The notes under the pieces are model-generated. The model had not been told where the DNA came from, did not search any database, and was given only the letters and a program-made list of their open reading frames with translations. Below, one piece after another: positions 3,082-43,132 of a stretch of 64,000 nt of DNA. The stretch's first letter is position 1. Each line of letters opens with the position of its first letter. Source of the DNA: an uncultured delta proteobacterium (GTDB lineage: Bacteria > Myxococcota > UBA727 > VGSZ01); the NCBI GenBank assembly GCA_963775425.1, contig CAVZJB010000007.1:64001-128000 (forward strand), read 5' to 3'. The translations under genes were made by a program, and so were the position numbers.

Positions 3082-4413
3082 GTGACCCACTCGCAAAGCG
3101 CCGCGGATCCACCGAGCGTCGACGGCGGCGCGCGCGGGCTCTCCCCGGGGATCGCGCTCGCCGCGCTCCGCGTCTTGCTCGCGGCGGCCGTGCTCCTCTC
3201 CGCCGACGTGTGGCGCGCGCCGCTGACCGTGCCGGCCCCGGGCGCGCCGGCGACGGCGCCCGCGCTCTTCGGTGCGCCGTGGCTGTGGCTGCCGCGCAGC
3301 GCGGGCGTCGTGCACGCCCTCGTCGCCGTCGTCGTCGTGAGCGCGGCGCTGGTGCTCGCGGGGGCGGCGACGCGCGCGTCGTCGACGGTGCTGACGCTGT
3401 CGTTGACGGTGCTCCTCGGCCTCGTGCAGTTGCAGGGCACGCCCGTCCACGTGCACCACCTCGCGTGGATGGCGGCGCTCGTGGCGGCGGGCGGCGCGGG
3501 CGGCTCCTTCTCGGTGGACGCGCTCGTGCGGCGGTGGCGCGGCGGCGACACGGGGCTGCGCGGGGCGCGCGCGGGGCGGGACGCCGGCGCGGCGATCGCC
3601 CTGCGCGCCGCGGCGTTGGTGCTCGCGCTCGTGTACTTCTTTCCCGGGCTGCACAAGCTCGTCGACGCGGGCTCGCCGTTTTTCGACGGGGCGTCGCTTC
3701 AGCGCCTGATCCGCTTGAAGGCGCTCGAGGCCGGCGGCGACGTCCCCTTCGGCCTCGACGCGCACCCCGCGCTCCTCGTCGCCGGCGGCGCCGTCGTCAT
3801 CGGCGTGGAGCTGTCGATGCCGCTCCTGGCGTGCCTGCGTCCGTGGACGGCGGGCGTGGCCGCGCTCGTTCTCCACGCGGTGTTCGCGGTCGGCTTCCAT
3901 ATGCCCTTCGGCGTGCTCGCGATCTTCGCGCCGGTGTTCTTCCTCGACGAGGCCGCGCGCCGCGCGTCCGCCGGCGCCCGCCACGGCGTCGCCGATCGCG
4001 GCGGCCTCTCCGCGGCGCCGCGCGCCGGTCTCGCGGTGGCAGGCGTGGTGCTCACGGGCGTCGTCGTCGCCGGCGCGCTCGGCGAGATGCGCGGGTATCC
4101 GTTCGCCTGCTACCCCACGTTCGCCGTGCCCGTGCCCCACGCCGTGCCCGACCTGCGCGTCTTCGTGGGCGCGCAAGCGAGCGCGCTTCCGTACGGCGTC
4201 CTCGCGCCCGAAGACGTGCGCACCGCCGTCGTCGCCGCCGCCCGCCGCGTGCGCACCGCCGGCGACGCCCGCCGCTTCCTCGCGTGGCGCATGCGCGATC
4301 CGCGCTTCGCCGCGGCCGTCGCCGGCGCCCGCGCGCGCGTCGTCCTCTTCGACGTCAACCTCGACGACATGCGCCGGTACAACGAGCGGACCGTCTCCGT
4401 CGACGTCCCGTGA
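3082..4413 (+). CDS. HTTM-like multi-pass membrane protein
   Basis: Several TM helices, YFFPGLHKL motif, YPF..YPTF near the C-terminus; GTG start 8 nt after TATCTT. Confidence 0.55.
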   Translation: MTHSQSAADPPSVDGGARGLSPGIALAALRVLLAAAVLLSADVWRAPLTVPAPGAPATAPALFGAPWLWLPRSAGVVHALVAVVVVSAALVLAGAATRASSTVLTLSLTVLLGLVQLQGTPVHVHHLAWMAALVAAGGAGGSFSVDALVRRWRGGDTGLRGARAGRDAGAAIALRAAALVLALVYFFPGLHKLVDAGSPFFDGASLQRLIRLKALEAGGDVPFGLDAHPALLVAGGAVVIGVELSMPLLACLRPWTAGVAALVLHAVFAVGFHMPFGVLAIFAPVFFLDEAARRASAGARHGVADRGGLSAAPRAGLAVAGVVLTGVVVAGALGEMRGYPFACYPTFAVPVPHAVPDLRVFVGAQASALPYGVLAPEDVRTAVVAAARRVRTAGDARRFLAWRMRDPRFAAAVAGARARVVLFDVNLDDMRRYNERTVSVDVP

Positions 4414-5289: not shown

Positions 5290-7100
5290 GGCGAAAAGAG
5301 CCCGAGCACGTCGTTGGTGAGGGCGACCACCATCAGGATGCCGATGAGGACGAGCCCCACGAGCACCGCCTTGCGGCGGGTCTCGCCGCTGATCTTCTTG
5401 CGCGTGACGAGCTCGATGACGAAGAACATCAGGTGCCCGCCGTCGAGGACGGGGATCGGGATCATGTTCATCACGGCGAGGTTCACGCTGATGAGCCCCA
5501 TGATCGACACGTAGCTCGCGGCGCCGAGCTCCGCCGCCTGGCCCGAGAGCTTGGCGATGCCGATGGGCCCGGAGAGCGCCTGCAGGCCCACGCCGCCGGT
5601 GACCAGCATCGCGAAGCCGCGGAAGACGTCGAGCACGAGGTCACCGGTCTGGTCCACCGCGCGCCGCGCGGCCTCGACGGGGGACACCGTGCGCTCGACC
5701 ATGGGGCCGTCGCCCATCGACGAGGACAGCGCCACGCCGAACACCTTGAGCCCGCCCATCTGGCGCTGCGGCGCGGGCAACATGCGGAACGCGAGCACGC
5801 GCGCGCCGCCGGCGCCGGTGACGCCCACGACGTGGATGCCGTCAGGGTCCGCGTTGAGCGGCGCCTGGAGGTCCTGGGGCGTGACCAGCTTCTTGCCGTC
5901 GACGGCGACGATGCGGTCGCCGGCCACGAGGCCCTTCTCCGCGGCCACCGTGCGCGGCTCCACGTGGGCGACGAGGCCGTCGACCGGGGACAGGCCGAAG
6001 CGGCGGGCGGCGTCGGCCTGCGCGGCGCGCGTGGACGCGAGCGTCTGCGCCACGCGGCCGCTCACCGGGTCCGTCGACAGCTCGTCGCCGGTGACGCCGA
6101 AGCGATCGACCGCGATCTCGACGGGGGCCGCCTCCTCCGCCGTGAGCGTCACCGTGCGCGGCTTGCCGTCGGGGGCCGCAGCCGCGGGGGCCACGGCGTC
6201 GTCGTCCTCGTGCTCGCCGTCGTGCGCGCCGTCGTCGGCGCCGGCCGCGGGCGCCGCCCCACCGGCCTTGCCGGCGGCCGCGCCGTCGTGCACGACCTCG
6301 ACGGTGGCCGTGCCCGCGGCCGCGGCCGCGTCGAGGGCCGCCATCAGCTCGTCCTTGCTCTGAACGGGCGTGCCGTCGACGGCGGTGACGCGGTCGCGGT
6401 CGCGAATGCCCGCGGCGGCCGCGGGGCTGTCAGGCTCCACGAGGACGGTGGGCAGCTCGACGCCGGCGAGGATGCCGAGGCGGCCGACGGTGCGCTTGCG
6501 GTCGAAGATTGTGGGATCGCGCGCGGCCCGCGGCGTGACCTCGAGATCGAAGGTCTTGCCGGCGCGCTCCACCGTGAGGCGCAGGGGCACGCCGGGGCGC
6601 GGCTCGACGAAGGCCTGCAGGTCCGAAAACAGCGTCACCGGCGTGCCGCCCACCGCGACGATGCGGTCGCCGGAGCGCAGACCGCCCTGGGCCGCGGGCT
6701 CGCCGTCGATCACCGTGCCCGCCACCGCCGCCGGCACGGTCTCGTGCCCCACGTTGAGGCCGAACAGCAGCGCCACCGGCAGCAGGATGTTCGCGAGCGG
6801 CCCCGCCACCGCGATGGCCGACTTCTTGAGGAACGGCTGGCCCAGGAAGGAGCGGTGCAGCTCCTCGGGAGGAATTTCCTCCTCGATGTCGTCGCCGTAC
6901 ATCTTCACGTAGCCGCCGAGCGGCAGCGCGGAGATGCGGTACTCGGTCTCGCCGCGCCGGAAGCCGACGAGCCGTGGGCCGAAGCCGATGCTGAAGGTCA
7001 GCACGCGGACGCCGCAGGCCTTGGCGACGAAAAAATGCCCCGCCTCGTGGACGGTGATCAAGATGCCGAGGAGCGCCACGAAGGCGACGACTGTCAACAC
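5286..7100 (-). CDS. rseP: RIP metalloprotease RseP (M50 family, PDZ domains)
   Basis: HEAGH zinc motif, FSIGFGP, LPLGGYVKM, three PDZ-like GDR(I/V).AV repeats, NMIPIPVLDGGH; start GTG 7100 (alternative ATG 7124). Confidence 0.93.
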   Translation of the reverse strand: MLTVVAFVALLGILITVHEAGHFFVAKACGVRVLTFSIGFGPRLVGFRRGETEYRISALPLGGYVKMYGDDIEEEIPPEELHRSFLGQPFLKKSAIAVAGPLANILLPVALLFGLNVGHETVPAAVAGTVIDGEPAAQGGLRSGDRIVAVGGTPVTLFSDLQAFVEPRPGVPLRLTVERAGKTFDLEVTPRAARDPTIFDRKRTVGRLGILAGVELPTVLVEPDSPAAAAGIRDRDRVTAVDGTPVQSKDELMAALDAAAAAGTATVEVVHDGAAAGKAGGAAPAAGADDGAHDGEHEDDDAVAPAAAAPDGKPRTVTLTAEEAAPVEIAVDRFGVTGDELSTDPVSGRVAQTLASTRAAQADAARRFGLSPVDGLVAHVEPRTVAAEKGLVAGDRIVAVDGKKLVTPQDLQAPLNADPDGIHVVGVTGAGGARVLAFRMLPAPQRQMGGLKVFGVALSSSMGDGPMVERTVSPVEAARRAVDQTGDLVLDVFRGFAMLVTGGVGLQALSGPIGIAKLSGQAAELGAASYVSIMGLISVNLAVMNMIPIPVLDGGHLMFFVIELVTRKKISGETRRKAVLVGLVLIGILMVVALTNDVLGLFSP

Positions 7101-7107
7101 GCGGAAA

Positions 7108-7116
7108 GCATATCCT
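7108..7116. promoter_or_regulatory. Overlapping divergent -10 elements (TATCCT on +, TATGCT on -)
   Basis: AGCATATCCT lies 6-7 nt before both the ATG at 7123 (+) and the GTG at 7100 (-); there is no room for a Shine-Dalgarno. Confidence 0.55.
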
Positions 7117-7122
7117 CTCGCC

Positions 7123-7689
7123 ATGGCGTCGCCGTCACTTTCGACCTCCCTTTCGTGCGCGATCGCCGTCGTCGCGCTCGCCTCCGGCTGCAAGCCCGAC
7201 GTGCTCTCGGCCACCTCGGTCGAGGGAGGCGAGGGGTGGGTACGCGCGCACGTGCCCAAGGGCGACGGCTGGCACTGCGCCGCGCACGACGCCGACAAGG
7301 AGACGTTCCAGTTCCGCGGCGTCAAGTGTCAGTACGACGCCGGCGTCGTCATGACCGCCAAGCTCTACGACGTCGACACCGGCGACGCGCGCACGGCGCA
7401 GCTCTTCTGCATCCAGGACTGGAGGCAGGCGTACGCCGCAGTGTTCAAAGACGTGATGACGTACACCCACGACGTCGTCGACTGGCACGGCGTGCCCGCG
7501 TGCAAGGTCGTGATCGACGGCGCGTCGACCAAGGGTCCCTGGCACCTGTTCGAGATCCACGCGCCGAACGGGCGGCGCATGCTGCAGCTCACGGTGATGG
7601 GATCGCTGCCGGTGGTGGACAAGGAGCAAAAGGTCGTCGACGCGTGGCTCGACAATCTGCACTACGACCTGCGCCTGCCGGGGCAGTGA
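7123..7689 (+). CDS. Hypothetical lipoprotein
   Basis: Lipobox LASG-C; typical codon usage. Confidence 0.7.
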   Translation: MASPSLSTSLSCAIAVVALASGCKPDVLSATSVEGGEGWVRAHVPKGDGWHCAAHDADKETFQFRGVKCQYDAGVVMTAKLYDVDTGDARTAQLFCIQDWRQAYAAVFKDVMTYTHDVVDWHGVPACKVVIDGASTKGPWHLFEIHAPNGRRMLQLTVMGSLPVVDKEQKVVDAWLDNLHYDLRLPGQ

Positions 7690-7698
7690 CGGCGCGCC

Positions 7699-7875
7699 TC
7701 AGCCCTTCTTCGGGGCCTTGTTCTTCGCCGCCTCCGCGTCGGGGGCCTCGACGTTGGCCTCGGCGTCGGGATCCTCGGCCTCGGCCCGCTTCAACAGCTC
7801 GGCGAGCTCGTCCTTCGACATCCGCTGCGTCGCCGCCGCTTGCTTGAGCGGCGGGGCCTTCTTCTTGTCCGTCAT
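7699..7875 (-). CDS. Small charged protein, 58 aa (absent from ORF track)
   Basis: MTDKKKAPPLKQAAATQRMSKDELAELLKRAEAEDPDAEANVEAPDAEAAKNKAPKKG; G/C-ending codons; TACAGT 6 nt upstream. Confidence 0.65.
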   Translation of the reverse strand: MTDKKKAPPLKQAAATQRMSKDELAELLKRAEAEDPDAEANVEAPDAEAAKNKAPKKG

Positions 7876-7887
7876 GAGCTCACTGTA

Positions 7888-8631
7888 TCAGGTGTGCGCG
7901 GGGGCGAGGCGGCCGTCCTTGACGACGAAGTCTTCGGCGACGGCGGGCGCGAGCGGCTTGGTGGCGTCGATGGCCACGCCGAGGCGCTGCATGGCGGCCG
8001 CGGTGTGACGCAGGACGCGCGCGGAGCGGGACTCGTCGCACACCATCGCCTGCAGCTTCTGAGACACCCCGTCGTGCAGCGACGCGATCTTCGGCCACAT
8101 GCGCTCGAAGGCGTCGATGCACGAGCACTGGACGTCGTCACCGTGGTCGTCGAGGTACGGGAGCACGGCCTCGGCGGCGCGCGGGTCGTTGTCCATGGAG
8201 ATGCAGAAGACGAGCTCGGCCTTGCCCTGCGTGGTGCGGTAGTCCTCGGGGGAGCGCGCCTTGAGCGCCTCGACGAGGTCGAGGATGTACGTGTCGTGGT
8301 CCACCAGGCGCTGCAGCGCCTTGGCCGCGAACGCGATGGCGTTCTCCTTCTTGAGGAACATCTTGAGCGCCATGCGCGCCGGCTCCCCGCGCTGCACGAG
8401 CTCGTCCACGAGCCACTTCTTCTCCTCCTCGTCCCAGTGCGGCGACTGCGCGACGACGGCGAACCGGGTGAGCGCGCCCTGGATGGCCTCGGGGGTGCCC
8501 CAGCCGAGCAGGCGCTCCATGGCCTCGCGGCGGTATTCGGGCTGCGCGTAGCGCTCCTTCACCTTCACAACGAGCTTTTCGATGTTCTTCTGCGTCGGCT
8601 TGTCGCCACCAAAGATGCTGAGAAGGCCCAT
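7888..8631 (-). CDS. HEAT-repeat (alpha-solenoid) protein
   Basis: MGLLSIFGG start; repeated helical motifs (RREAMERL, LPYLDDHGDDVQ). Confidence 0.7.
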   Translation of the reverse strand: MGLLSIFGGDKPTQKNIEKLVVKVKERYAQPEYRREAMERLLGWGTPEAIQGALTRFAVVAQSPHWDEEEKKWLVDELVQRGEPARMALKMFLKKENAIAFAAKALQRLVDHDTYILDLVEALKARSPEDYRTTQGKAELVFCISMDNDPRAAEAVLPYLDDHGDDVQCSCIDAFERMWPKIASLHDGVSQKLQAMVCDESRSARVLRHTAAAMQRLGVAIDATKPLAPAVAEDFVVKDGRLAPAHT

Positions 8632-35657: not shown

Positions 35658-36181
35658 CACGCTCCGCTGTCTACGTCCCCGGCATCCCCGGCGTCCACGT
35701 CGGCGACGCCGGCGTCGACGGGAGCGCGCGCTTTGTTCCGCAGGCGCTCGCCCTTCTTCAGGTTGCGCCAGAAGACCATCGTGGTCTCGTCGACGCCGCC
35801 GCGGGCCTCGACCGCGCGCAGCACGCTGACGCCGTCGGCGCAGTACGCCTTGGCGCGCTCGCGGGCGGCGCGCTCGTGCACCTTCAACGGGACACGCGGC
35901 TCGGTGGCGGTGGTGGTGACGTCGGCGAGGCGCACCACGCCTCCCGGCACCGGGCCCTCCACCACCTCGGCCTTCACGCGCGCCTCGCACACGCCGCTCG
36001 GTGCGCGATCGGTGTGAACGAGGACGCGCGGCTTCACGACCCGCTCCGGAGCCGTGACACACGCGCTCGCGATGACCAGGGCCGCGAGCGGCGCCGCGCC
36101 GAGGGTGCGTGCCGCGCCGTGGCGACCGCCGCGCGATGCGCGGCCCTGGCAGGGTGCGCGCCCCGCGACGGCCGGGGTCAT
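35657..36181 (-). CDS. Hypothetical lipoprotein
   Basis: LVIASA-C lipobox; TGATG overlaps with top6B upstream and the MDR gene downstream. Confidence 0.6.
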   Translation of the reverse strand: MTPAVAGRAPCQGRASRGGRHGAARTLGAAPLAALVIASACVTAPERVVKPRVLVHTDRAPSGVCEARVKAEVVEGPVPGGVVRLADVTTTATEPRVPLKVHERAARERAKAYCADGVSVLRAVEARGGVDETTMVFWRNLKKGERLRNKARAPVDAGVADVDAGDAGDVDSGA

Positions 36182-38208
36182 CAGGCGCTCTTCTTGTGCT
36201 GCTGCGGCGCCGGCGGCGGCTTCGACTTCTTCCTCGCCGGCTTCCTTTTGTCCTCGGTGCGCGACTTCTCGAGGACGAGCTTCAGGTTCTCCACGGCCTC
36301 CACGGTCTGCTGCTTGTCGAGGCCGAGGATGTCGCGGAGCGCCTCGCCGATGGGGTCGAGGTAGCGGGTGATGTAGTCGCGCTTCTTCTGCTCTTCGGCC
36401 AGGTTCTTGCGGCGGCGCAGGAAGCGTTGCAGGCGGCGGCCCGCCTCCATCACCGCGAGGCGCATCTCCTTGAGCACCTCCGGGTAGTGCGCGATGGCCT
36501 CCTTGGACTCGCTCGTGTACGGCACCCACGCCGACGCGATGTGGATGAGGATGACCATCGGGCCCGTCGGCAGCGCGCCCTTCGCCTGCTGCACCTCGTA
36601 CGAGCGCCACGGCGCGCTCACCACCGCCTTGAACATCGCGCACCCGCTCGCCTGGTAGAGCAGCGGGACGCGGTTGGCGAAGCGGAACACCTTGGCGAGC
36701 TCGTCGCCGGGCAGCGTCTTGGAGTAGAGGATGCCGCACTCGACCTGGAACGGGTTGCCTCGATAGATGGCGGGCGGCCGCGTGACCGCGGTGACGAACA
36801 TGCTCTCGCCGAGGGCGATGACCTTGCCGCCGTCCTCGTCGTTTTGGATGCGCGCCTTGGCCGGCGCCGCCTGGCCATCGCCCGCCTCGCCGTCGCCCGC
36901 CTCGCCGTCGGCGGACGCGCCGTCGCCCGCCTGGCCGTCGGCGGACGCACCGTTCGCCGGCGCCGGCAGCGACGACGGCACCGCGCGCGCGAACGGGAGC
37001 TGGGGCAACGCTTCGCCCTTCTTGCGCTTGCCCGCCGCCTTGGCCGCGGTGGGCGGCGCAGGCGCAGGCGCGGGCTCCTCCTCGTCGGGGGCGACGGCGA
37101 CGGCCGGCTTTTGCTTGCCGAGGGTGAGGACCTCCTCGTCCTCCTCCTTGAGGTTGCCGATGTCGCCGTAGAGCGCGTAGAGCCCCTTGATCAACGCCTC
37201 CTCGCCGATGGGCGACAGGCAGTTGGTGGGCGGAGCCATCAGCTTCTGTTCCTGGATGGCGTTGAAGATCGACTCGCCCTCGGCGCGCGAGAGCTTGCCG
37301 CACTCGGCGTTCGGCGAGATCTTCGCGCGAGCGAGGATCTCGCCGGCGACGGCGGGCGTGACGCGCGAGAAGCTCGTGGTGAGGAACGCCTGCACCTTCT
37401 GCTTGCCGGCGTCGGCGAGCATGCGCTGGAGCGTGCCGAGCTCCACGCCGTGCGGGTGCGGGTTGATCTCCACCGGCTCCTTGGGCAGCTCGTCGATGAC
37501 GCGCACGAGGTCGAGCGTGTCCGTGCTCAGCGGGGGAGCGCCGCGCTCGAGCTGCGTCTTGCTCGCGAGCTTGTGCGTGCGGAAGAGGATGCGCGCGTGC
37601 GGGTTGGCCAGCGACGTCTGCTTCAGGTACGCCTCGATGCCGTGGCGGCCACCCTTCATCTGCGCCGCCATCAGAAGCTCGATGGAGGTGCCCGACGGCT
37701 TCTCCCGCCACCAGTCGCTCTCGGAGATCGCCTCGGACTCGACCTTGGGCTGGTTCTTCGCGGTGTCGATGAAGAGGTGGATGTGGTGCGGCTTGCCGCC
37801 CCGCATCTTGCTGATGATGTTGGCGGGCTCACCGGTGGTCATCTGGGCGTACATGACGGCGGCGGAGATGCCGATGCCCTGCTGACCGCGCGACTGCTTG
37901 AGACGGTGGAACTTGGAGCCGTACAAGAGCTTGGCGAAGATCTTCCCCATCTCGCTCTTGGGGATGCCCGGCCCGTTGTCCTCGATGCGCACCTTGTAGC
38001 GGCCCTCGCCGACCTCGGTGAGCTCGACGACGATCTCGGGCAGGATGCGCGCCTCCTCACACGCGTCGAGCGCGTTGTCCACCGCCTCGCGCACCGCCGT
38101 GAGGAGCGCCTTCTGCGGCGAATCGAAGCCGAGGAGGTGGCGGTTCTTCGAGAAGAACTCGCTCACCGCGATTTCGCGTTGGCGCGGCTGCTTTTCGGCG
38201 CTGGTCAT
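36181..38208 (-). CDS. top6B: DNA topoisomerase VI subunit B
   Basis: SEFF.KNRHLLGFDS, GHKL EAVDNALDACEEA, DNGPGI, LLYGSKFH, QSRGQQGIGIS, PHPHGVELG, RFANRVPLLY, VPYTSESKEAIA. Confidence 0.95.
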   Translation of the reverse strand: MTSAEKQPRQREIAVSEFFSKNRHLLGFDSPQKALLTAVREAVDNALDACEEARILPEIVVELTEVGEGRYKVRIEDNGPGIPKSEMGKIFAKLLYGSKFHRLKQSRGQQGIGISAAVMYAQMTTGEPANIISKMRGGKPHHIHLFIDTAKNQPKVESEAISESDWWREKPSGTSIELLMAAQMKGGRHGIEAYLKQTSLANPHARILFRTHKLASKTQLERGAPPLSTDTLDLVRVIDELPKEPVEINPHPHGVELGTLQRMLADAGKQKVQAFLTTSFSRVTPAVAGEILARAKISPNAECGKLSRAEGESIFNAIQEQKLMAPPTNCLSPIGEEALIKGLYALYGDIGNLKEEDEEVLTLGKQKPAVAVAPDEEEPAPAPAPPTAAKAAGKRKKGEALPQLPFARAVPSSLPAPANGASADGQAGDGASADGEAGDGEAGDGQAAPAKARIQNDEDGGKVIALGESMFVTAVTRPPAIYRGNPFQVECGILYSKTLPGDELAKVFRFANRVPLLYQASGCAMFKAVVSAPWRSYEVQQAKGALPTGPMVILIHIASAWVPYTSESKEAIAHYPEVLKEMRLAVMEAGRRLQRFLRRRKNLAEEQKKRDYITRYLDPIGEALRDILGLDKQQTVEAVENLKLVLEKSRTEDKRKPARKKSKPPPAPQQHKKSA

Positions 38209-38215
38209 GCGCGTC

Positions 38216-38245
38216 GACATAGCGACACCGGTGATCGTCTGTCAA
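38216..38245 (-). promoter_or_regulatory. sigma70-type promoter of top6B
   Basis: TTGACA (38245-38240, includes the upstream stop codon), 18 nt, TATGTC (38221-38216), then 7 nt to ATG 38208. Confidence 0.55.
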
Positions 38246-39086: not shown

Positions 39087-39683
39087 CTACGGCACGGTGA
39101 AGAAGAGGTCGCCGCTCTCGTCGCTCTCGGCGTCGAGGAGCGCGCCCTGCAGCGTCGCGGTGGCGGCGCCGCTGACGTTGATCTCGAAGGGGCCGCCCGC
39201 GCGCCCGTCGTAATTCACGGCCCAGGCCGTGTACGTGCCGGACTCGAGGCTGCCGTTGAAGAAGATGTTCTCCACGTGCGTGCCGGGGCCGCAGGAGAAG
39301 ATGCACTGGTCGACGTCGAGGAGCCCGCCGCCGGCCTCGGGGTTGCCGTAGTAGATCTCCTCGCCCTGCGGCGTCAGCACGTGCAGGTCGTAGTCCGCGT
39401 CGACCTCGAAGGTCAGCGTGACCTGAAGCACACCGATACCGACGCAGGTCCCGGCTTCGCACTCGGCGCCGGCGCCGCAGTCGTCGTCGGTGCTGCAGTC
39501 GTCGCCGGACGTGGTGGGCGGCGGCGGCTCCGGCGCCGCGGGCGGATCCGGCTCGGGGTCGGGCGCCGGATCCGGCGGCGGATCGGGGACGGAGACCAGG
39601 ACGTCGTCCGCGCACCCGGCGACGGCGGCCGCGGCTCCGAGGGCGATGACGAGGAAGGAGACGGCGCGGACCGGGTGGCGCAT
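39087..39683 (-). CDS. Lipoprotein with Pro-rich linker, Cys-rich module and YfaP/DUF2135-like domain
   Basis: VAG-C lipobox; LQVTLTF...DYDLHV..P.GEEIYY...LDVD...ENIF. Confidence 0.75.
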   Translation of the reverse strand: MRHPVRAVSFLVIALGAAAAVAGCADDVLVSVPDPPPDPAPDPEPDPPAAPEPPPPTTSGDDCSTDDDCGAGAECEAGTCVGIGVLQVTLTFEVDADYDLHVLTPQGEEIYYGNPEAGGGLLDVDQCIFSCGPGTHVENIFFNGSLESGTYTAWAVNYDGRAGGPFEINVSGAATATLQGALLDAESDESGDLFFTVP

Positions 39684-39788
39684 GCAGGGATTGTCGGCGC
39701 CGCCGCGGATGTCGGCTCCGGTCGTTCGGCGGACCGAGGCATCGGTCACACGGCGGGGGCGCGACCGTCCGCGCCCCCGCCGCGCGCG

Positions 39789-40292
39789 CTACTCGCCCTC
39801 TCCCTCGCCCTCTCCCTCGCCCTCGCCTTCGCCTTCACCCTCGCCTTCGCCTTCGCCGGCGGAGGGCGCACAGCTCTGGCCCGCGGGCGCGATGCCGTCG
39901 GCGCAGTCGCAATTCTGGTCGATGCCGTCGCCCTCGGGGTCGTCGGCGCCGGGGTGGATGGAGGCGTCGTCGTCGTTGCAGTCGGGGTTGGGCGCGAGGT
40001 TGTTGACGTCGTCGCAGGCCTCGACGCTGCCGTCCGCGGCCTTGCGGGTGGCGGTGAAGAAGCCGTCGCCGTCGCCGTCGACGGTGTCCGTGCACGGCGG
40101 CAACGGGGGCAGCCCGTAGCAGGCCATGAGCGTGACGGCGAAGGCGCTCCCCCCCGCGAGCATCGTCGCGATCCGGGTCACCCTCTTGAGGGCGCCTGCG
40201 GGCGGCGACGACGACGACGGGCAGCTCGGACAGCTCTGGCTCGACGACGGGATGAAGCCGCCGCACCTCGGGCAGCTCGACAACGAAGGCAT
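39789..40292 (-). CDS. Zn-ribbon / CYG-motif lipoprotein with putative metal-binding (MopE-like) repeat and (GE)n tail; candidate radical SAM substrate
   Basis: AAGGAG SD; CPRC...CPSC, hydrophobic stretch, LMA-CYGLPP, DGDGDGF...DCNDDDASIHPGA..DGIDQNCD, (GE)10. Confidence 0.8.
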   Translation of the reverse strand: MPSLSSCPRCGGFIPSSSQSCPSCPSSSSPPAGALKRVTRIATMLAGGSAFAVTLMACYGLPPLPPCTDTVDGDGDGFFTATRKAADGSVEACDDVNNLAPNPDCNDDDASIHPGADDPEGDGIDQNCDCADGIAPAGQSCAPSAGEGEGEGEGEGEGEGEGEGEGE

Positions 40293-40336
40293 ATCTCTTC
40301 TCCTTGGATGAGCGCTCGCGCGCTGCCCCCGCCGAC

Positions 40337-40351
40337 TCAAGGCACGTGCCA
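40337..40351 (-). promoter_or_regulatory. sigma54-like promoter for the CYG lipoprotein gene
   Basis: TGGCACG-tgcc-TTGA versus consensus TGGCACG-N4-TTGC, 45 nt before the ATG. Confidence 0.55.
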
Positions 40352-40521
40352 CCTGCGCCTCACGGTCCACGCGCCGGCGTTCCCCGTCGGCGGCCTCGCG
40401 GAAAGTTGAGACGCGGCCGCCGCGCGCGACGCGGGTGTCGTGCGTGGGCGCACGCGAGGCCCGGCGCGCCTCGACGGGGGGCCGGCGCGCCGCCTGGCAT
40501 GCGCCGTGAAGAAACGACGGC

Positions 40522-41763
40522 ATGGTCAAACGCCGCCTCGAGGTTTTGCCCGACGAGCACTTCCCCGCGTACGTCGTCTGGGAGCTGACGCTGCGCTGTG
40601 ATCAGGGCTGCGCGCACTGCGGCTCCCGCGCCGGCGCGCGACGCCCCGACGAGCTCACCACCGACGAGGCGCTGCGCGTCGTCGACGAGCTGAAGGACAT
40701 GGGTGCGCAGGAGGTCGTGGTCATCGGCGGCGAGGCGTACCTGCACGAGGGCTTCCTCGACATCGTCCGCGCCCTCGCGCGCGCGGGCATCCGCCCGATG
40801 ATGACCACGGGCGGCCGCGGCGTCACGGCGGCGCTCGCGAAGCAGATGAAAGAGGCGGGCCTCATCGGCGTGTCCGTCTCCGTCGACGGCTTGCGCGAAC
40901 AGCACGACGCCATCCGCCGCGCCGCCGGCAGCTTCGATTCCGCCATGACCGCGCTCGATCACCTCGCCGCCGCCGGCATCCGCATCGCCGCCAACACCAA
41001 CGTCAACCGCAAGAACGCTCCCGTCCTCGAGGAGCTCTTCGTCCTGCTGCGCGACAAGGGCGTGCGCGCGTGGCAGGTCCAGATCACCGCGCCGCTCGGG
41101 CGCGCGGCCGACCGCCCGCAGATGCTGCTTCAGCCCTACGACCTCCTCGACGTCGTCCCGCGCGTCGCGGCGCTCAAGCGGCGCGCGTTCGCGAGCGGCA
41201 TGCTGCTCATGCCCGGCAACAACCTCGGCTACTTCGGCGTGCACGAGGCCGCGCTGCGCTCACCGCGGCAGGGCGGGCGCGACCACTGGCGCGGCTGCCA
41301 GGCGGGCAAGCTCGTCATGGGCATCGAGAGCGACGGCGCGGTGAAGGGCTGCCCCTCGCTGCAGCCCGCGTACATCGGCGGCAACGTGAGGCGGCGCGCG
41401 CTCCGCGACATCTGGGACGGCGCACCCGAGCTCGCATTCACGCGGCGCCGCGGCGTCGAGGACCTCTGGGGCTTCTGTCGCAGTTGCGACTTCGCCGACA
41501 CCTGCCTCGGCGGCTGCTCCTTCACCGCCCACGCCGTCTTCGGCCGCGCCGGAAACAACCCCTACTGCCACCACCGCGCCTCGATGTTCGCGAGGGAGGG
41601 GAAGCGCGAGCGCCTCGTGCCCGCGGCCGCGGCGCCGGGGACGCCCTTCGATCACGGCCTGTTCGACGTCGTCGTCGAGGACGCCGGCGCCCCCGAGCCC
41701 GTGGCCCACGCCGACCTCGTGGCCATCACACGGGCGCCGCGCAAGCGCCCCCGCGCCGCATGA
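40522..41763 (+). CDS. Radical SAM/SPASM peptide/protein maturase, splicease (PlpX)-like
   Basis: VWELTLRCDQGCAHCGSRAG (CxxxCxxC), GNNLGYFG, SPASM CQAG...G.VKGCPSL...CRSCDFADTCLGGC...NNPYCHHR. Confidence 0.88.
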   Translation: MVKRRLEVLPDEHFPAYVVWELTLRCDQGCAHCGSRAGARRPDELTTDEALRVVDELKDMGAQEVVVIGGEAYLHEGFLDIVRALARAGIRPMMTTGGRGVTAALAKQMKEAGLIGVSVSVDGLREQHDAIRRAAGSFDSAMTALDHLAAAGIRIAANTNVNRKNAPVLEELFVLLRDKGVRAWQVQITAPLGRAADRPQMLLQPYDLLDVVPRVAALKRRAFASGMLLMPGNNLGYFGVHEAALRSPRQGGRDHWRGCQAGKLVMGIESDGAVKGCPSLQPAYIGGNVRRRALRDIWDGAPELAFTRRRGVEDLWGFCRSCDFADTCLGGCSFTAHAVFGRAGNNPYCHHRASMFAREGKRERLVPAAAAPGTPFDHGLFDVVVEDAGAPEPVAHADLVAITRAPRKRPRAA

Positions 41764-41772
41764 TGGCGACGA

Positions 41773-42507
41773 TCAGACCTTCAGCGAGAACGGCGTGAAG
41801 TTGGTGTCGCGGTCGTAATAGTCCTCGTGCTCCGCCTTCTTGAAGAACGCGACGATGCGATAGGTGAGCGGCGTGGCCACCGCCTCCCAGCCGACCTTGA
41901 CGCAGTAGTTGGCGATCATCACCTTCACGAGGAGCGAGTTGGGCATCCAGCTCTCACCGTAGAAGGCGAGGGGATAGAAGATGCAGGTGTCGACGGCCTC
42001 GCCCGCGATGGTGGAGCCGATGGTGCGCGTCCACAGCCAGCGGCCGCTCGTGAGCACCTTCATCTTGGCGAGCACGAAGGAGTTGGCGAACTCGCCGCAG
42101 AAGTAGCCGATGAGCGACGCGAGCGCGACGCGCCACGTGGAGCCGAAGGCCCACTCGATCATCGCCTGGTCCTTGAACTCCGCCGCCGGCGGCAGGTGCA
42201 CGACGACGAAGCTCTGGAGCGAGGCGAACGCGAGCGCCGCGAAGCCCGCCCACACCACGCGGCGCGAGCGCGCGTAGCCGTAGACCTCGGTGAGGATGTC
42301 GCCGAACAGGTAGCTGATGGGGAAGAACAGGTTGCCGGCGCCGAACGCGACCAGCCCGATCACCGGGAGATCCACCTGCGCGATCTTGCGGACGCCGATG
42401 AGGTTCGAGCACAGCAACACGCAGACGAACGCGCCGAGCACGAGGTCGTAGTACTTGTACTGACGACGCGCGGGCAGCGCGGGTTCCGGCGGCGGCGGGG
42501 TCGGCAT
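41773..42507 (-). CDS. yhhQ: Queuosine precursor transporter (YhhQ/VUT family)
   Basis: FPISYLFGDILTEVYGY, WLWTRTIGST..GE.VDT, terminal DTNFTPFSL. Confidence 0.92.
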   Translation of the reverse strand: MPTPPPPEPALPARRQYKYYDLVLGAFVCVLLCSNLIGVRKIAQVDLPVIGLVAFGAGNLFFPISYLFGDILTEVYGYARSRRVVWAGFAALAFASLQSFVVVHLPPAAEFKDQAMIEWAFGSTWRVALASLIGYFCGEFANSFVLAKMKVLTSGRWLWTRTIGSTIAGEAVDTCIFYPLAFYGESWMPNSLLVKVMIANYCVKVGWEAVATPLTYRIVAFFKKAEHEDYYDRDTNFTPFSLKV

Positions 42508-42604
42508 CACCGCTCGTGTATCACCACGCCGTCAGGAATTCCGCCTCCGCGAGCGGATGGGACCCCGGTTTCATGGCCCCCCCGGCCGGAGCATACTGCG
42601 GCGC

Positions 42605-43132
42605 ATGAGCCTTCCTTCCGTCTTCAACTTCAAGCAGTGGATCGACGAGCACCGGCACCTGTTGAAGCCCCCGGTGGGGAACTACGAGGTGTACCCGAAC
42701 CACGAGTTCATCATCATGGTCGTCGGCGGACCCAACTCGCGCACCGACTACCACGTGGACCCCGCGGAGGAGTTCTTCTACATGGTCGAGGGCGACATGA
42801 CCTTGCGCGTCGTCGACGAGGGCAAGATCAAGGACATCGAGATCAAGCAGGGCGAGATCTTCCTGTTGCCCGCGAACGTGCCGCACTCGCCGCAGCGACG
42901 CGCGAACACGGTGGGGCTCGTCGTCGAGCGCGCACGCAAGTCCCTCGAGATCGACATGTTCCAGTGGTACTGCGAGAAGTGCTCGAGCAAGCTGTACGAA
43001 GAACGGCTTCAGCTCACGGACATCGTCAAGCAGCTCCCGCCCGTCTTCGAGCGCTACGAGTCCAAGCTGGACAACCGCACCTGCCGCGACTGCGGCTGGG
43101 TGATGCCCCCGAGGGCGGAAGCCGCCACCTGA
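42605..43132 (+). CDS. nbaC: 3-hydroxyanthranilate 3,4-dioxygenase
   Basis: LKPPVGN, VGGPNSRTDYH...EEFFY, PHSPQR, rubredoxin-like CEKC/CRDC. Confidence 0.95.
   Translation: MSLPSVFNFKQWIDEHRHLLKPPVGNYEVYPNHEFIIMVVGGPNSRTDYHVDPAEEFFYMVEGDMTLRVVDEGKIKDIEIKQGEIFLLPANVPHSPQRRANTVGLVVERARKSLEIDMFQWYCEKCSSKLYEERLQLTDIVKQLPPVFERYESKLDNRTCRDCGWVMPPRAEAAT

Follow-up and report, generated by a model that had tools for sequence, protein, structure and literature searches.

A radical SAM (rSAM) enzyme with a SPASM domain and a small zinc-ribbon protein encoded beside it form a gene pair that is conserved in many myxobacteria. Among the explanations that we weighed, the best, and in our estimation a probable one, is that the pair constitutes a splicease system of two genes, with a pre-prolipoprotein as its substrate. 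The pair was studied in a stretch of DNA from an uncultured member of the Myxococcota (64,000 nucleotides in full, here called the window). A reading of this DNA made from the letters alone (the sequence-only reading) had described the rSAM gene, a divergent gene for a 167-residue protein and a Cys-Tyr-Gly (CYG) sequence in that protein. All were found where it had placed them. The parts of the locus, and a paralogue elsewhere in the same genome, are these:

40522..41763, plus strand: rSAM/SPASM enzyme gene (413 aa, open reading frame)
40293..40521, no strand: intergenic region (229 bp) between the divergent rSAM and precursor genes; holds the Shine-Dalgarno sequence of the precursor
39789..40292, minus strand: precursor gene (167 aa, open reading frame), the proposed substrate; conserved rSAM neighbour in relatives
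40221..40274, minus strand: four-Cys zinc ribbon, C7-x2-C10...C21-x2-C24; proposed recognition leader, cytoplasmic side
40122..40172, minus strand: hydrophobic h-region, residues 41-57; 17 uncharged residues after K36/R37/R40, ending in a lipobox-like L-M-A
40113..40121, minus strand: C58-Y59-G60, XYG splice motif with X the putative lipobox Cys, LPP next; invariant in alignments A1 and A2
39906..39983, minus strand: MopE-type putative metal-binding motif, residues 104-129 (PF11617, 25.9 bits; gathering score 27)
39792..39851, minus strand: C-terminal tail (GE)10, from the translation
39087..39749: 220-aa gene downstream of the precursor gene, with a lipobox-like VAGC
5585-6955 of locus L026, on contig C17 of the same genome (G000): paralogous rSAM, with the gene of a repeat-bearing neighbour upstream

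The precursor's ATG at 40292 is preceded by a Shine-Dalgarno sequence (AAGGAG, 40300-40305), and this start codon is consistent with the aligned orthologues. A plus-strand precursor between the rSAM gene and the 167-aa gene was also considered and rejected, as only an off-frame ORF of 94 aa was found there. Neither between the two genes nor next to them is there another conserved gene, and a separate Y gene (encoding a PqqD-like RRE) is absent. The sequence-only reading had likewise seen no PlpY/RRE gene, and such an arrangement agrees with published binary systems (PMC11414181). The other genes near the pair in the window are unrelated housekeeping genes. That a YfaP-like lipoprotein gene follows the precursor gene held true only as far as the lipobox-like VAGC of the 220-aa protein: its likeness to YfaP is a weak lead (DUF2135 on Atlas neighbours scoring 0.78-0.82), and it has no match in Pfam or NCBIfam. 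With no homologue in the flanks of related loci, this gene was rejected as a member of the system.

To which family does the enzyme belong? Pfam recognizes its Radical_SAM (PF04055, 81.3 bits) and SPASM (PF13186, 30.6 bits) domains, and only about 15 residues lie ahead of the rSAM core. Two splicease-type NCBIfam models, TIGR04103 (439.7 bits), under which PlpX presumably belongs, and TIGR03913 (392.7 bits), score more than 230 bits above all other families, with both values below the curated equivalog cut-offs (725 and 591.75 bits, respectively). Its orthologues score 420-448 bits on TIGR04103 and 392-407 bits on TIGR03913. The best SPASM family outside these models is TIGR04133, at 157 bits versus a cut-off of 425; the enzyme is not a member of this family, one of three that had been suggested for checking. 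AhbD (155.7 bits), NirJ (120.3 bits) and PqqE (99.5 bits) score lower. In the PDB, SkfB comes nearest (64.9 bits), followed by PqqE (56.4 bits). In 28 aligned orthologues, the cluster motif CX3CX2C (C26, C30, C33) and seven Cys residues of the SPASM region (C259, C277, C319, C322, C328, C332, C349) are invariant. The same is true of the two motifs that had been singled out in the enzyme, VWE.TL.C...C.HCGSRAG and GNN.GY. The view of the protein as splicease-like, grouping with TIGR04103 and TIGR03913 and not with AhbD, NirJ or PqqE, is thus upheld for an enzyme that falls under both cut-offs. Judged by its sequence, it is a separate subfamily within the splicease clade, with a predicted chemistry.

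The same genome contains a paralogue of the enzyme (47% identical) that has the same VWE..C...C.HCGSRAG and GNN.GY motifs and reaches 685.2 bits on TIGR04103. The gene just upstream of it encodes three [IV]RP[ML]YGL repeats, whose core is that of the PlpA splice tag PIRPLYGLPI (PMC10533398 Table 1). Unlike the 167-aa precursor, this neighbour looks cytoplasmic, having neither a zinc ribbon nor a signal peptide. In the Myxococcota set, the zinc-ribbon precursor occurred in none of the 24 genomes having only the paralogue clade.

The 167-aa precursor belongs to no NCBIfam family, has no Nif11 or NHLP leader, and in Pfam yields the sub-threshold MopE motif only. Its identification as an anti-sigma factor (zf-HC2) was rejected, there being no such Pfam match and no sigma-factor gene nearby. 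When Pfam was run on 33 of 80 precursors, the MopE motif was above threshold in 13 of the 33; zinc-ribbon matches in relatives were sub-threshold only. The tails of the precursors contain 15% Asp and extracellular-type MopE or DUF4215 motifs, and two relatives (L014 and L015) likewise have GE tails. These C-terminal tails are unrelated to each other, while the residues of the N-terminal motifs are conserved: C7, C10, C21, C24, T54, M56, A57, C58, Y59 and G60 are invariant, the zinc-ribbon Cys residues and CYG in both A1 and A2, although inside the 80 loci taken from the DNA-pattern scan the invariance of the motif is by construction. The earlier claim depended on homologues keeping CYG, and they do.

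The precursor family surfaced only through a DNA-pattern scan and a profile search; a word-indexed protein search with residues 1-66 gave two relatives among 78 candidates. The pattern [SA][VLI]TLMACYG matched 102 stretches in 185,579 species (one genome each), and 94 of these encode precursor relatives. The profile search returned 1413 proteins at E <= 1e-3. From the best 150 of the 1413, we dropped 37 (35 long multi-zinc-ribbon proteins and two ribbon-only matches); the remaining 113 of this best 150 carry xxxxCYG, in the form of TLMACYG (104), TMMACYG (4), TLAACYG (4) or TLRACYG (1). The TLMACYG motif exceeds chance.

How faithfully do enzyme and precursor accompany one another? In 401 Myxococcota genomes, 73 have both an rSAM orthologue and the precursor, three have the rSAM only, one has the precursor only (a doubtful match), and 324 have neither; these counts overstate independence, because the sampled genomes are related to one another. 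Co-occurrence of the zinc-ribbon/signal/ACYG protein with this rSAM across Myxococcota, which the sequence-only reading had proposed as a check, is hence nearly one to one. Loci found via the rSAM alone tell the same story: 77 of 83 have an XYG-bearing precursor as a neighbour (the regular expression used for these neighbours demanded a Cys), in two orientations, the divergent one recurring for 32 of 82 precursor neighbours. The six other loci comprise two cut by a contig end, two with the precursor elsewhere in the genome and two degenerate copies. In the first search, which covered 61 relatives, nine of ten rSAM-orthologue loci from other genomes had a zinc-ribbon/TLMACYG neighbour, and the tenth meets a contig end. 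Cultivable organisms that harbor the pair include Sorangium cellulosum So ce56, Corallococcus, Archangium and Cystobacter.

A structural model of the enzyme-precursor complex scored 0.95 in all three runs, versus 0.00 for the best of three controls; in the calibration of the tool, the 0.95 mark is attained by 58 of the 80 solved complexes and by 2 of the 110 mismatched pairs. Our job departs from this calibration in using alignments that we made ourselves, together with riding ligands. The runs share at least 92% of their contacts, and the precursor's pLDDT is 71-73. The precursor's interface in the model consists of residues 48-66, which include CYG and are threaded into the enzyme, and residues 2-23, which hold the zinc ribbon. 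This placement of both elements on the enzyme favors the idea that the zinc ribbon may be the recognition leader. We found no comparable solved complex in the PDB.

The X of the splice motif had been equated with the Cys of a lipobox. Of the 82 precursors, 63 have Cys as X, and the quartet before the Tyr is LMAC in 45, LSAC in 14 and LAAC in three of the 82. In 19 of the 82, X is L, V, I, A or P, and the XYG lies 3-16 residues past a Cys that ends the hydrophobic stretch (LAAC, AVGC, VSSC and LTGC are examples). Other forms at the lipobox position in relatives are VVAC and, with N, F or Y at -1, VSNC, TSFC and TSYC. The Cys residues after the stretch-ending Cys are even in number in 76 of 77, 62 of 63 and 19 of 19 proteins, a parity consistent with lipidation of the odd Cys. 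Twelve of 77 precursors have no Cys after it at all; in view of this finding and of the parity, we rejected an intramolecular disulfide as the general role of the conserved Cys. Two members of the family are named “Lipoprotein” in UniRef. The genome has LspA (84.3 bits, over the cut-off) and a match to Lgt just under its cut-off (110.6 versus 118.9 bits). The equation of X with a lipobox Cys is thus supported by a Cys that stays at the end of the stretch when XYG shifts, by the LSAC and LAAC variants and by the even count of later Cys residues. We lean toward lipidation of Cys58 and cleavage by LspA as its predicted fate.

The hydrophobic stretch could, however, be an uncleaved signal anchor. 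The pair and the splicing would then be the same, and the precursor would be a bitopic membrane protein with an unlipidated Cys58, a cytoplasmic zinc ribbon and, where the helix ends on the outside, a ketoamide. An N-terminal zinc ribbon followed by a single helix is a common layout of membrane proteins, and the stretch in the window grows to about 21 residues (I41-L61) if CYGL is counted, enough for such an anchor. Further, the window's LMAC departs from typical lipoproteins: the strict lipobox [LVI][ASTVI][GAS]C does not allow Met at -2, the Cys at residue 58 is past the usual ~15-35 (because of the zinc-ribbon extension), and some variants have a poor residue at -1. Yet the stretch is no longer than 14 residues in 10 of 80 relatives (median 17, range 9-24), and the placement and parity of the Cys residues, the LSAC and LAAC variants and the UniRef names also oppose an anchor. 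We therefore regard it as unlikely.

Less probable still is that the pair is real and the radical reaction is something other than tyramine excision, for instance the formation of a Cys-Tyr cross-link or of a thioether from Cys to the backbone, as known from other SPASM maturases. SPASM enzymes that make thioethers, such as sactipeptide and ranthipeptide maturases, usually do so with Cys; here, X is Cys in most precursors, and the enzyme, under both splicease equivalog cut-offs, stands in its own clade. But YG is kept in the 19 precursors whose X is another residue, with the Cys up to 16 residues off, and the splicease-type models are the nearest by the margin given above. The paralogue in the same genome also adjoins PlpA-like RP[ML]YGL repeats, and a YG followed by L/A/M-P agrees with printed splice tags (PMC10533398). 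Finally, the adjacency might be incidental, the rSAM working in another pathway (as a cofactor or haem-type SPASM enzyme) and the small protein being an ordinary surface protein with a MopE motif. The unrelated housekeeping genes that make up the remaining neighbours in the window would suit such an explanation, which we nevertheless consider highly improbable: it is opposed by the near one-to-one co-occurrence in the 401 genomes, by the neighbours in two orientations at rSAM-seeded loci, by AhbD, NirJ and PqqE scores that do not exceed 155.7 bits, and by the complex model with its controls.

According to the splicease reading that we prefer, the 167-aa protein would be made with an extended signal peptide, in which the four-Cys zinc ribbon is followed by positive charges and by a hydrophobic stretch of 17 residues with L-M-A-C at its end. 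While the protein is still in the cytoplasm, the rSAM/SPASM enzyme would bind the zinc ribbon and the TLMACYGLPP segment and act on Tyr59. Judging from its homology to PlpX-type spliceases, the enzyme would cut out a tyramine equivalent (C8H9NO, 135.06 Da) and join the carbonyl of Cys58 to that of the former Tyr; we deem this excision chemistry likely. A loss of 135.06 Da is the splicing signature given in PMC11626197. After export, Lgt would lipidate Cys58, and LspA would cut between A57 and C58. This cut would remove the zinc-ribbon/signal leader, and we propose that the signal peptide thus doubles as a RiPP leader. Once mature, the product would be a lipoprotein of the surface or periplasm with a lipidated ketoamide residue at the N-terminus of an acidic, Cys-rich, metal-binding tail, and it may act as a membrane-tethered electrophile or protease inhibitor, or as a covalent anchor. 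We tentatively suggest the designation lipoprotein-type spliceotide for a possible class in which the leader is a zinc-ribbon-extended lipoprotein signal peptide that recruits the splicease and LspA is the leader peptidase. Taken as a whole, the interpretation in the sequence-only reading is supported, and each of its proposed checks that the analysis covered went in its favor.

Does such a system resemble those already described? Like the type I spliceases PlpXY and PcpXY of cyanobacteria, which have Nif11-type precursors, it features an rSAM/SPASM enzyme at an XYG, with TIGR04103 as the best HMM, and the CYGLPP of the window resembles the PlpA splice tag PIRPLYGLPI in having L-P after YG (PMC10533398). 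In contrast to PlpXY/PcpXY, the present system lacks both a Y/RRE protein and a Nif11 leader, the rSAM is under the equivalog cut-off, X is Cys instead of Met or Leu, and the precursor is a predicted exported protein with a zinc ribbon and a signal peptide. The RhaX/RhaA, RcsX/RcsA and RasX/RasA systems of Rheinheimera, as described in PMC11414181 and PMC11626197, are binary (type II), lack a Y protein, have a leader that contacts the enzyme, and yield ketoamide peptides that inhibit Ser/Cys proteases. The present pair shares the two components and the absence of a Y protein. Its proposed leader is a zinc ribbon plus signal peptide, however, whereas that of Rheinheimera is an alpha-helix, and its splice site is at the predicted signal-peptide cleavage point, whereas Rheinheimera makes small, soluble peptides that contain a disulfide.

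An rSAM/SPASM enzyme together with a predicted lipoprotein is also found in the TIGR04133/TIGR04134 system of Bacteroidota, a candidate splicease family according to the sequence-only reading. The present pair differs in its TIGR04133 score and in a precursor without a TIGR04134 match (the best match to that model in its own genome is 20 bits versus a cut-off of 39.8). The precursor resembles classical Lgt/LspA lipoproteins in that a positively charged n-region leads into a hydrophobic stretch (9-24 residues), small residues stand ahead of an invariant Cys, and the acidic, Cys-rich body, predicted to be exported, has one Cys without a partner. Unlike them, it has a zinc ribbon of 30-40 residues ahead of the signal and a dominant Met at -2, and the splicease would take out the residue that follows the Cys while the protein awaits export. 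In our literature search, we came upon neither a zinc-ribbon nor a lipoprotein precursor described for a splicease; the systems predicted in a 2022 survey (Scott et al., Chem 8:2659), 939 in number according to PMC10533398, may already include this type.

Within the family, the pair is defined and widespread in cultivable hosts, the cellular location of the product is predictable, and a protein, not a free peptide, serves as the substrate. To our knowledge, spliceases are the sole known route to ribosomal alpha-keto-beta-amino acids. According to the cited passages of PMC9811515 and PMC8868522, their native product and natural role are not yet known. Protein engineering could likewise draw on the zinc-ribbon leader and on the conserved tag, which is short. 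If the splice site is indeed a lipidated Cys, backbone editing by an rSAM enzyme would be tied to lipoprotein biogenesis: a signal peptide would serve as a RiPP leader, and bacterial lipoproteins would gain a new N-terminal chemistry. A protease-reactive electrophile would then sit at the membrane surface of a widespread set of Myxococcota (73 of the 401 genomes sampled), where, as a ketoamide tethered to the membrane, it could protect the envelope of these protease-secreting predators or act as a covalent anchor.

The locus lies in sequence of ~72% GC and centers on two divergent genes, 229 bp apart, that encode a radical-SAM/SPASM enzyme (here, the rSAM) and its proposed substrate, a zinc-ribbon protein (the precursor). 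All of the features that a sequence-only reading had reported (the rSAM/SPASM gene, the divergent 167-aa gene, the ribbon, CYG, the metal-binding repeat and the GE tail) are present.

Features of the locus (window coordinates; ribbon, hydrophobic stretch and GE tail as read from the sequence)
40522..41763 (+): rSAM gene, 413 aa; Pfam Radical_SAM 81.3 bits, SPASM 30.6 bits
39789..40292 (-): precursor gene, 167 aa
C7-x2-C10 ... C21-x2-C24 (-): four-Cys zinc ribbon of the precursor
K36, R37, R40 (-): positive residues between ribbon and hydrophobic stretch
17 uncharged residues with T-L-M-A at the end (-): hydrophobic stretch of the precursor
40121..40113 (-): CYG motif, C58-Y59-G60, with L-P-P directly after
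Residues 104-129 (-): MopE-type motif of the precursor; Pfam 25.9 bits vs. threshold 27
Last element (-): GE tail of the precursor, ten GE repeats
39087..39749 (-): downstream gene, 220 aa; predicted lipoprotein with lipobox-like VAGC

The precursor's ATG at 40292 is preceded by a strong AAGGAG (40300-40305), and this start agrees with aligned orthologues. The 220-aa downstream protein consists of a linker rich in Pro and Asp, a Cys-rich knot and a domain at the C-terminus with I-Y-Y-G-N-P; neither Pfam nor NCBIfam gave a match over the cut-off, and its likeness to DUF2135 (YfaP-type) is a weak lead. Because a search of the flanks of related loci turned up no homologue of it, we left this gene out of the system. 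Just 3' of the rSAM (41773-43132) are genes for a queuosine-precursor transporter in convergent orientation (Vut_1, 166.7 bits) and, beyond it, a 3-hydroxyanthranilate 3,4-dioxygenase (256.8 bits), both unrelated to the pair. Further away, 36181-38220 (-) encodes a 679-aa Top6B-like protein with GHKL ATPase and topoisomerase VI B transducer domains (169.1 bits), interrupted by an Ala/Gly/Asp/Pro-rich low-complexity insert, in this myxobacterial genome.

To which family does the enzyme belong? Its affinity for the splicease-type families held up against NCBIfam: TIGR04103 (nif11-class peptide rSAM maturase 3; 439.7 bits vs. a curated cut-off of 725) and TIGR03913 (GDL-motif peptide-associated maturase; 392.7 vs. 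591.75) scored far above AhbD (155.7 bits), NirJ (120.3) and PqqE (99.5), with TIGR04133 at 157 bits, likewise under its curated membership cut-off. Orthologues showed the same pattern, with 420-448 bits on TIGR04103 and 392-407 on TIGR03913; those scored came from Sorangium, a relative with a small genome and a MAG labelled Leptospiraceae. The motifs VWE..L.C...C.HCGSRA and GNN.GY, which the sequence-only reading had named for spliceases of the PlpX type, are invariant among 28 aligned orthologues, as are the CX3CX2C cysteines and seven SPASM-region cysteines. The window's own genome also encodes a paralogue (47% identical; 685.2 bits on TIGR04103) at a canonical-looking second splicease locus (L026 on contig C17, 5585-6955 (-), locus-internal coordinates). 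The gene directly upstream on the same strand (~6983-8350 (-)) encodes three [IV]RP[ML]YGL repeats separated by ~60-residue units; the PlpA splice tag PIRPLYGLPI (Table 1 of PMC10533398) has this same core, which ties the rSAM clade to tyramine spliceases. The PDB holds no splicease structure, the nearest solved relatives being SkfB (64.9 bits) and PqqE (56.4 bits).

We examined the pairing from the enzyme's side. Among 61 relatives, the rSAM was present in 13 genomes, with 10 orthologue loci in other genomes at 56-71% identity. A zinc-ribbon neighbor with TLMACYG (TMMACYG in one case) was found at 9 of these 10 loci; the tenth (L021) is cut off by a contig end. The neighbor was divergent at six loci and on the same strand, directly upstream, in three small genomes, and the C-terminal parts of the nine proteins are mutually unrelated. 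A search of 401 Myxococcota genomes at 1e-60 matched 100 genomes and resolved an orthologue group (56-71% identity, at least 467 bits for full-length matches), a paralogue group (43-50%, ~338-430 bits) and a third, more distant group (37-41%, ~225-263 bits). All places in the orthologue group were taken for neighbor analysis. Scanning with an HMM built on the first 66 positions of the precursor gave a match beside the rSAM at 34/36 and then 46/49 loci; at one (L133) the alignment was spurious, yet a genuine member lies within the same ORF. An HMM-independent regular expression requiring zinc ribbon, hydrophobic stretch, Cys and YG found 82 precursor ORFs at 77/83 rSAM-seeded loci, on the opposite strand to the rSAM in 32 and on the same strand in 50. 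Two negative loci (L021, L144) are cut by contig ends, two belong to genomes with a member elsewhere (G342, G208), and two have degenerate precursors. Of the latter, L168 (G345; 3707-4195 (-)) has a deletion that takes out the TLMACYG core, and L180 (G247; 3691-4164 (-)) reads LLSAC-SG, with Tyr replaced, and adjoins the lowest-scoring orthologue rSAM (425 bits, blastp). Several genomes (e.g., G196, G214, G227, G235, G239, G247, G252, G255, G330, G331 and G394) carry two orthologue-clade rSAMs, both of them accompanied by a separate precursor; some of these genomes combine a precursor with Cys (LMAC or LSAC) as X of the XYG motif and one in which Cys and XYG lie apart.

At the genome level, membership of the orthologue group was set solely on rSAM identity (71 genomes by full-length and 5 by truncated matches), and the group was crossed with a precursor-profile search of the same genomes. 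The co-occurrence across Myxococcota that the sequence-only reading had put forward as a check was evident: 73/401 genomes had both, 3 the rSAM only, 1 the precursor only and 324 neither, counts that are descriptive and carry no statistical test because the genomes are interrelated. Of the rSAM-only genomes, G131 is 75% complete with its locus at a contig end, G260 showed a variant neighbor on inspection, and G307 has just a partial rSAM at the edge of a contig; in the precursor-only genome (G073), the profile matched in the zinc-ribbon part alone, inside a 399-aa ORF. The profile found no precursor in the 24 genomes having only paralogue-type or more distant rSAMs.

The converse search started from the motif. 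Scanning [SA][VLI]TLMACYG over 185,579 species, each represented by a single genome, yielded 102 matching stretches, 94 of which encode a precursor relative; 80 loci were kept. In this set, motif invariance holds by construction; the zinc ribbon was present in 80/80 and an rSAM lay within the fetched 4-kb flanks of 66/80. Contig ends truncate five of the other 14 (L043, L047, L051, L065, L095), and several of the 14 duplicate, within a MAG, a precursor that does adjoin an rSAM. Going by record labels, the hosts are nearly all Myxococcota: Polyangium, Sorangium (including So ce56), Archangium, Cystobacter, Corallococcus, Citreicoccus, Vitiosangium, Nannocystis, Haliangium, Labilithrix, Byssovorax and Kofleriaceae. 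Two loci labelled otherwise, in a Leptospiraceae MAG (L091) and a Pseudomonadota MAG (L066), have the same pair, which could reflect transfer or mislabelling; the L091 sequence is low-GC and Lys-rich. A profile search of 1.84 billion representatives returned 1413 proteins at E <= 1e-3 (406 at E <= 1e-10). From the best 150 of the 1413, 37 were dropped (35 long multi-zinc-ribbon proteins and 2 ribbon-only matches), and the remaining 113 all read xxxxCYG. Database names for the precursors are "hypothetical protein", "putative metal-binding motif-containing protein" and "Zinc ribbon domain-containing protein", with two UniRef entries called "Lipoprotein"; the enzymes are solely "radical SAM/SPASM domain-containing protein".

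A structural model supports binding of the precursor by the rSAM. We modelled the enzyme (28-row alignment) with precursor residues 1-70 (33-row alignment), SAM and three 4Fe-4S clusters. The complex scored 0.95 in 3/3 runs, against 0.00 for the highest of three controls; the 0.95 mark was reached by 58/80 solved complexes and 2/110 mismatched pairs in calibration, from whose conditions the custom alignments and accompanying ligands depart. Runs shared at least 92% of contacts, with partner pLDDT of 71-73. No comparable complex was found among solved structures, and the score is therefore unlikely to reflect structures memorized by the predictor. The modelled interface comprises precursor residues 48-66 (including C58, Y59 and G60) and zinc-ribbon residues 2-23, and enzyme residues 1-11, 16-21, 66-68, 93-95, 115-118, 154-160, 182-187, 226-234 and parts of the SPASM region, the first-listed of which flank the cluster motif. 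Such contact agrees with the binary spliceases, which, according to PMC11414181, have no Y protein and recognize an element within the leader.

Is Cys58 a lipobox cysteine? The quartet ending in Cys was LMAC in 45/82 precursors, LSAC in 14/82 and LAAC in 3/82; the last two are canonical lipoboxes. In 19/82, one of L, V, I, A and P stands as X, and a Cys 3-16 residues ahead of XYG still closes the hydrophobic stretch (...SLAAC-QPVYGAPC, ...AVGC-TISALYGAPC, ...VSSC-GTPMALYGVPC, ...LTGC-TLPIAAYGLPPC). The regular expression itself demanded a Cys and the HMM did not; on inspection, none of the HMM-detected neighbors lacked it. Upstream of the rSAM in G359 (L123 611-1480 (+)), two tandem zinc-ribbon precursors have signals that end in LVVAC and LAIAC. 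Their XYG sites (LYG, AYG, PYG) lie farther downstream and number two or three per protein, with three in the LVVAC one; this is a natural separation of the putative lipobox from the predicted splice sites.

Beyond this Cys, the cysteine count is even in 76/77 complete motif-seeded proteins and, in the rSAM-seeded set, in 62/63 with X = Cys and 19/19 with Cys and XYG separated, the lone exception being the same protein in both sets; 12/77 tails have no other Cys. The signal-end Cys is therefore the unpaired one, a pattern that fits lipidation and speaks against disulfide bonding as its usual role. Median length of the hydrophobic stretch is 17 residues; in 10/80 proteins it is <=14, short for a stable membrane helix. 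The tails (15% Asp, 15% Gly, 10% Pro, 6.6% Cys; MopE motifs in 13/33 and DUF4215 in 3/33 tested) are typical of exported myxobacterial proteins in composition and motifs. The genome encodes LspA (84.3 bits vs. a cut-off of 73.95) and a likely Lgt (110.6 bits, slightly under 118.9). Against a lipobox, however, M at -2 falls outside the strict pattern, the Cys lies as far in as position 58, the -1 residue is N, F or Y in some variants, and the stretch reaches helix length once CYG and the next residue are counted. On balance, we regard lipidation of Cys58 as somewhat the better-favored outcome.

We propose a precursor type in which a zinc-ribbon leader is fused to a signal peptide and the predicted splice site lies at or just after the lipobox Cys. 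We found no description of it in the splicease/spliceotide literature; a survey (Scott et al. 2022, Chem 8:2659) that, according to PMC10533398, predicted 939 systems could already list this one. A pre-prolipoprotein would be made with its signal peptide visibly extended by the ribbon, and the cytoplasmic rSAM would dock, as in the model, onto the ribbon and TLMACYGLPP. Family affinity and the XYG motif suggest that tyramine would then be excised at CYG (the published signature, per PMC11626197, is a 135.06 Da loss); the pair would work like binary splicease systems. Sec export, lipidation by Lgt and cleavage by LspA at A57|C58 would follow, giving a lipoprotein whose first residue would be a lipidated ketoamide, ahead of an acidic metal-binding tail. 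Because spliceotide ketoamides inhibit serine and cysteine proteases (PMC11626197), it is plausible, by analogy, that the product would serve as a membrane-tethered inhibitor or covalent anchor.
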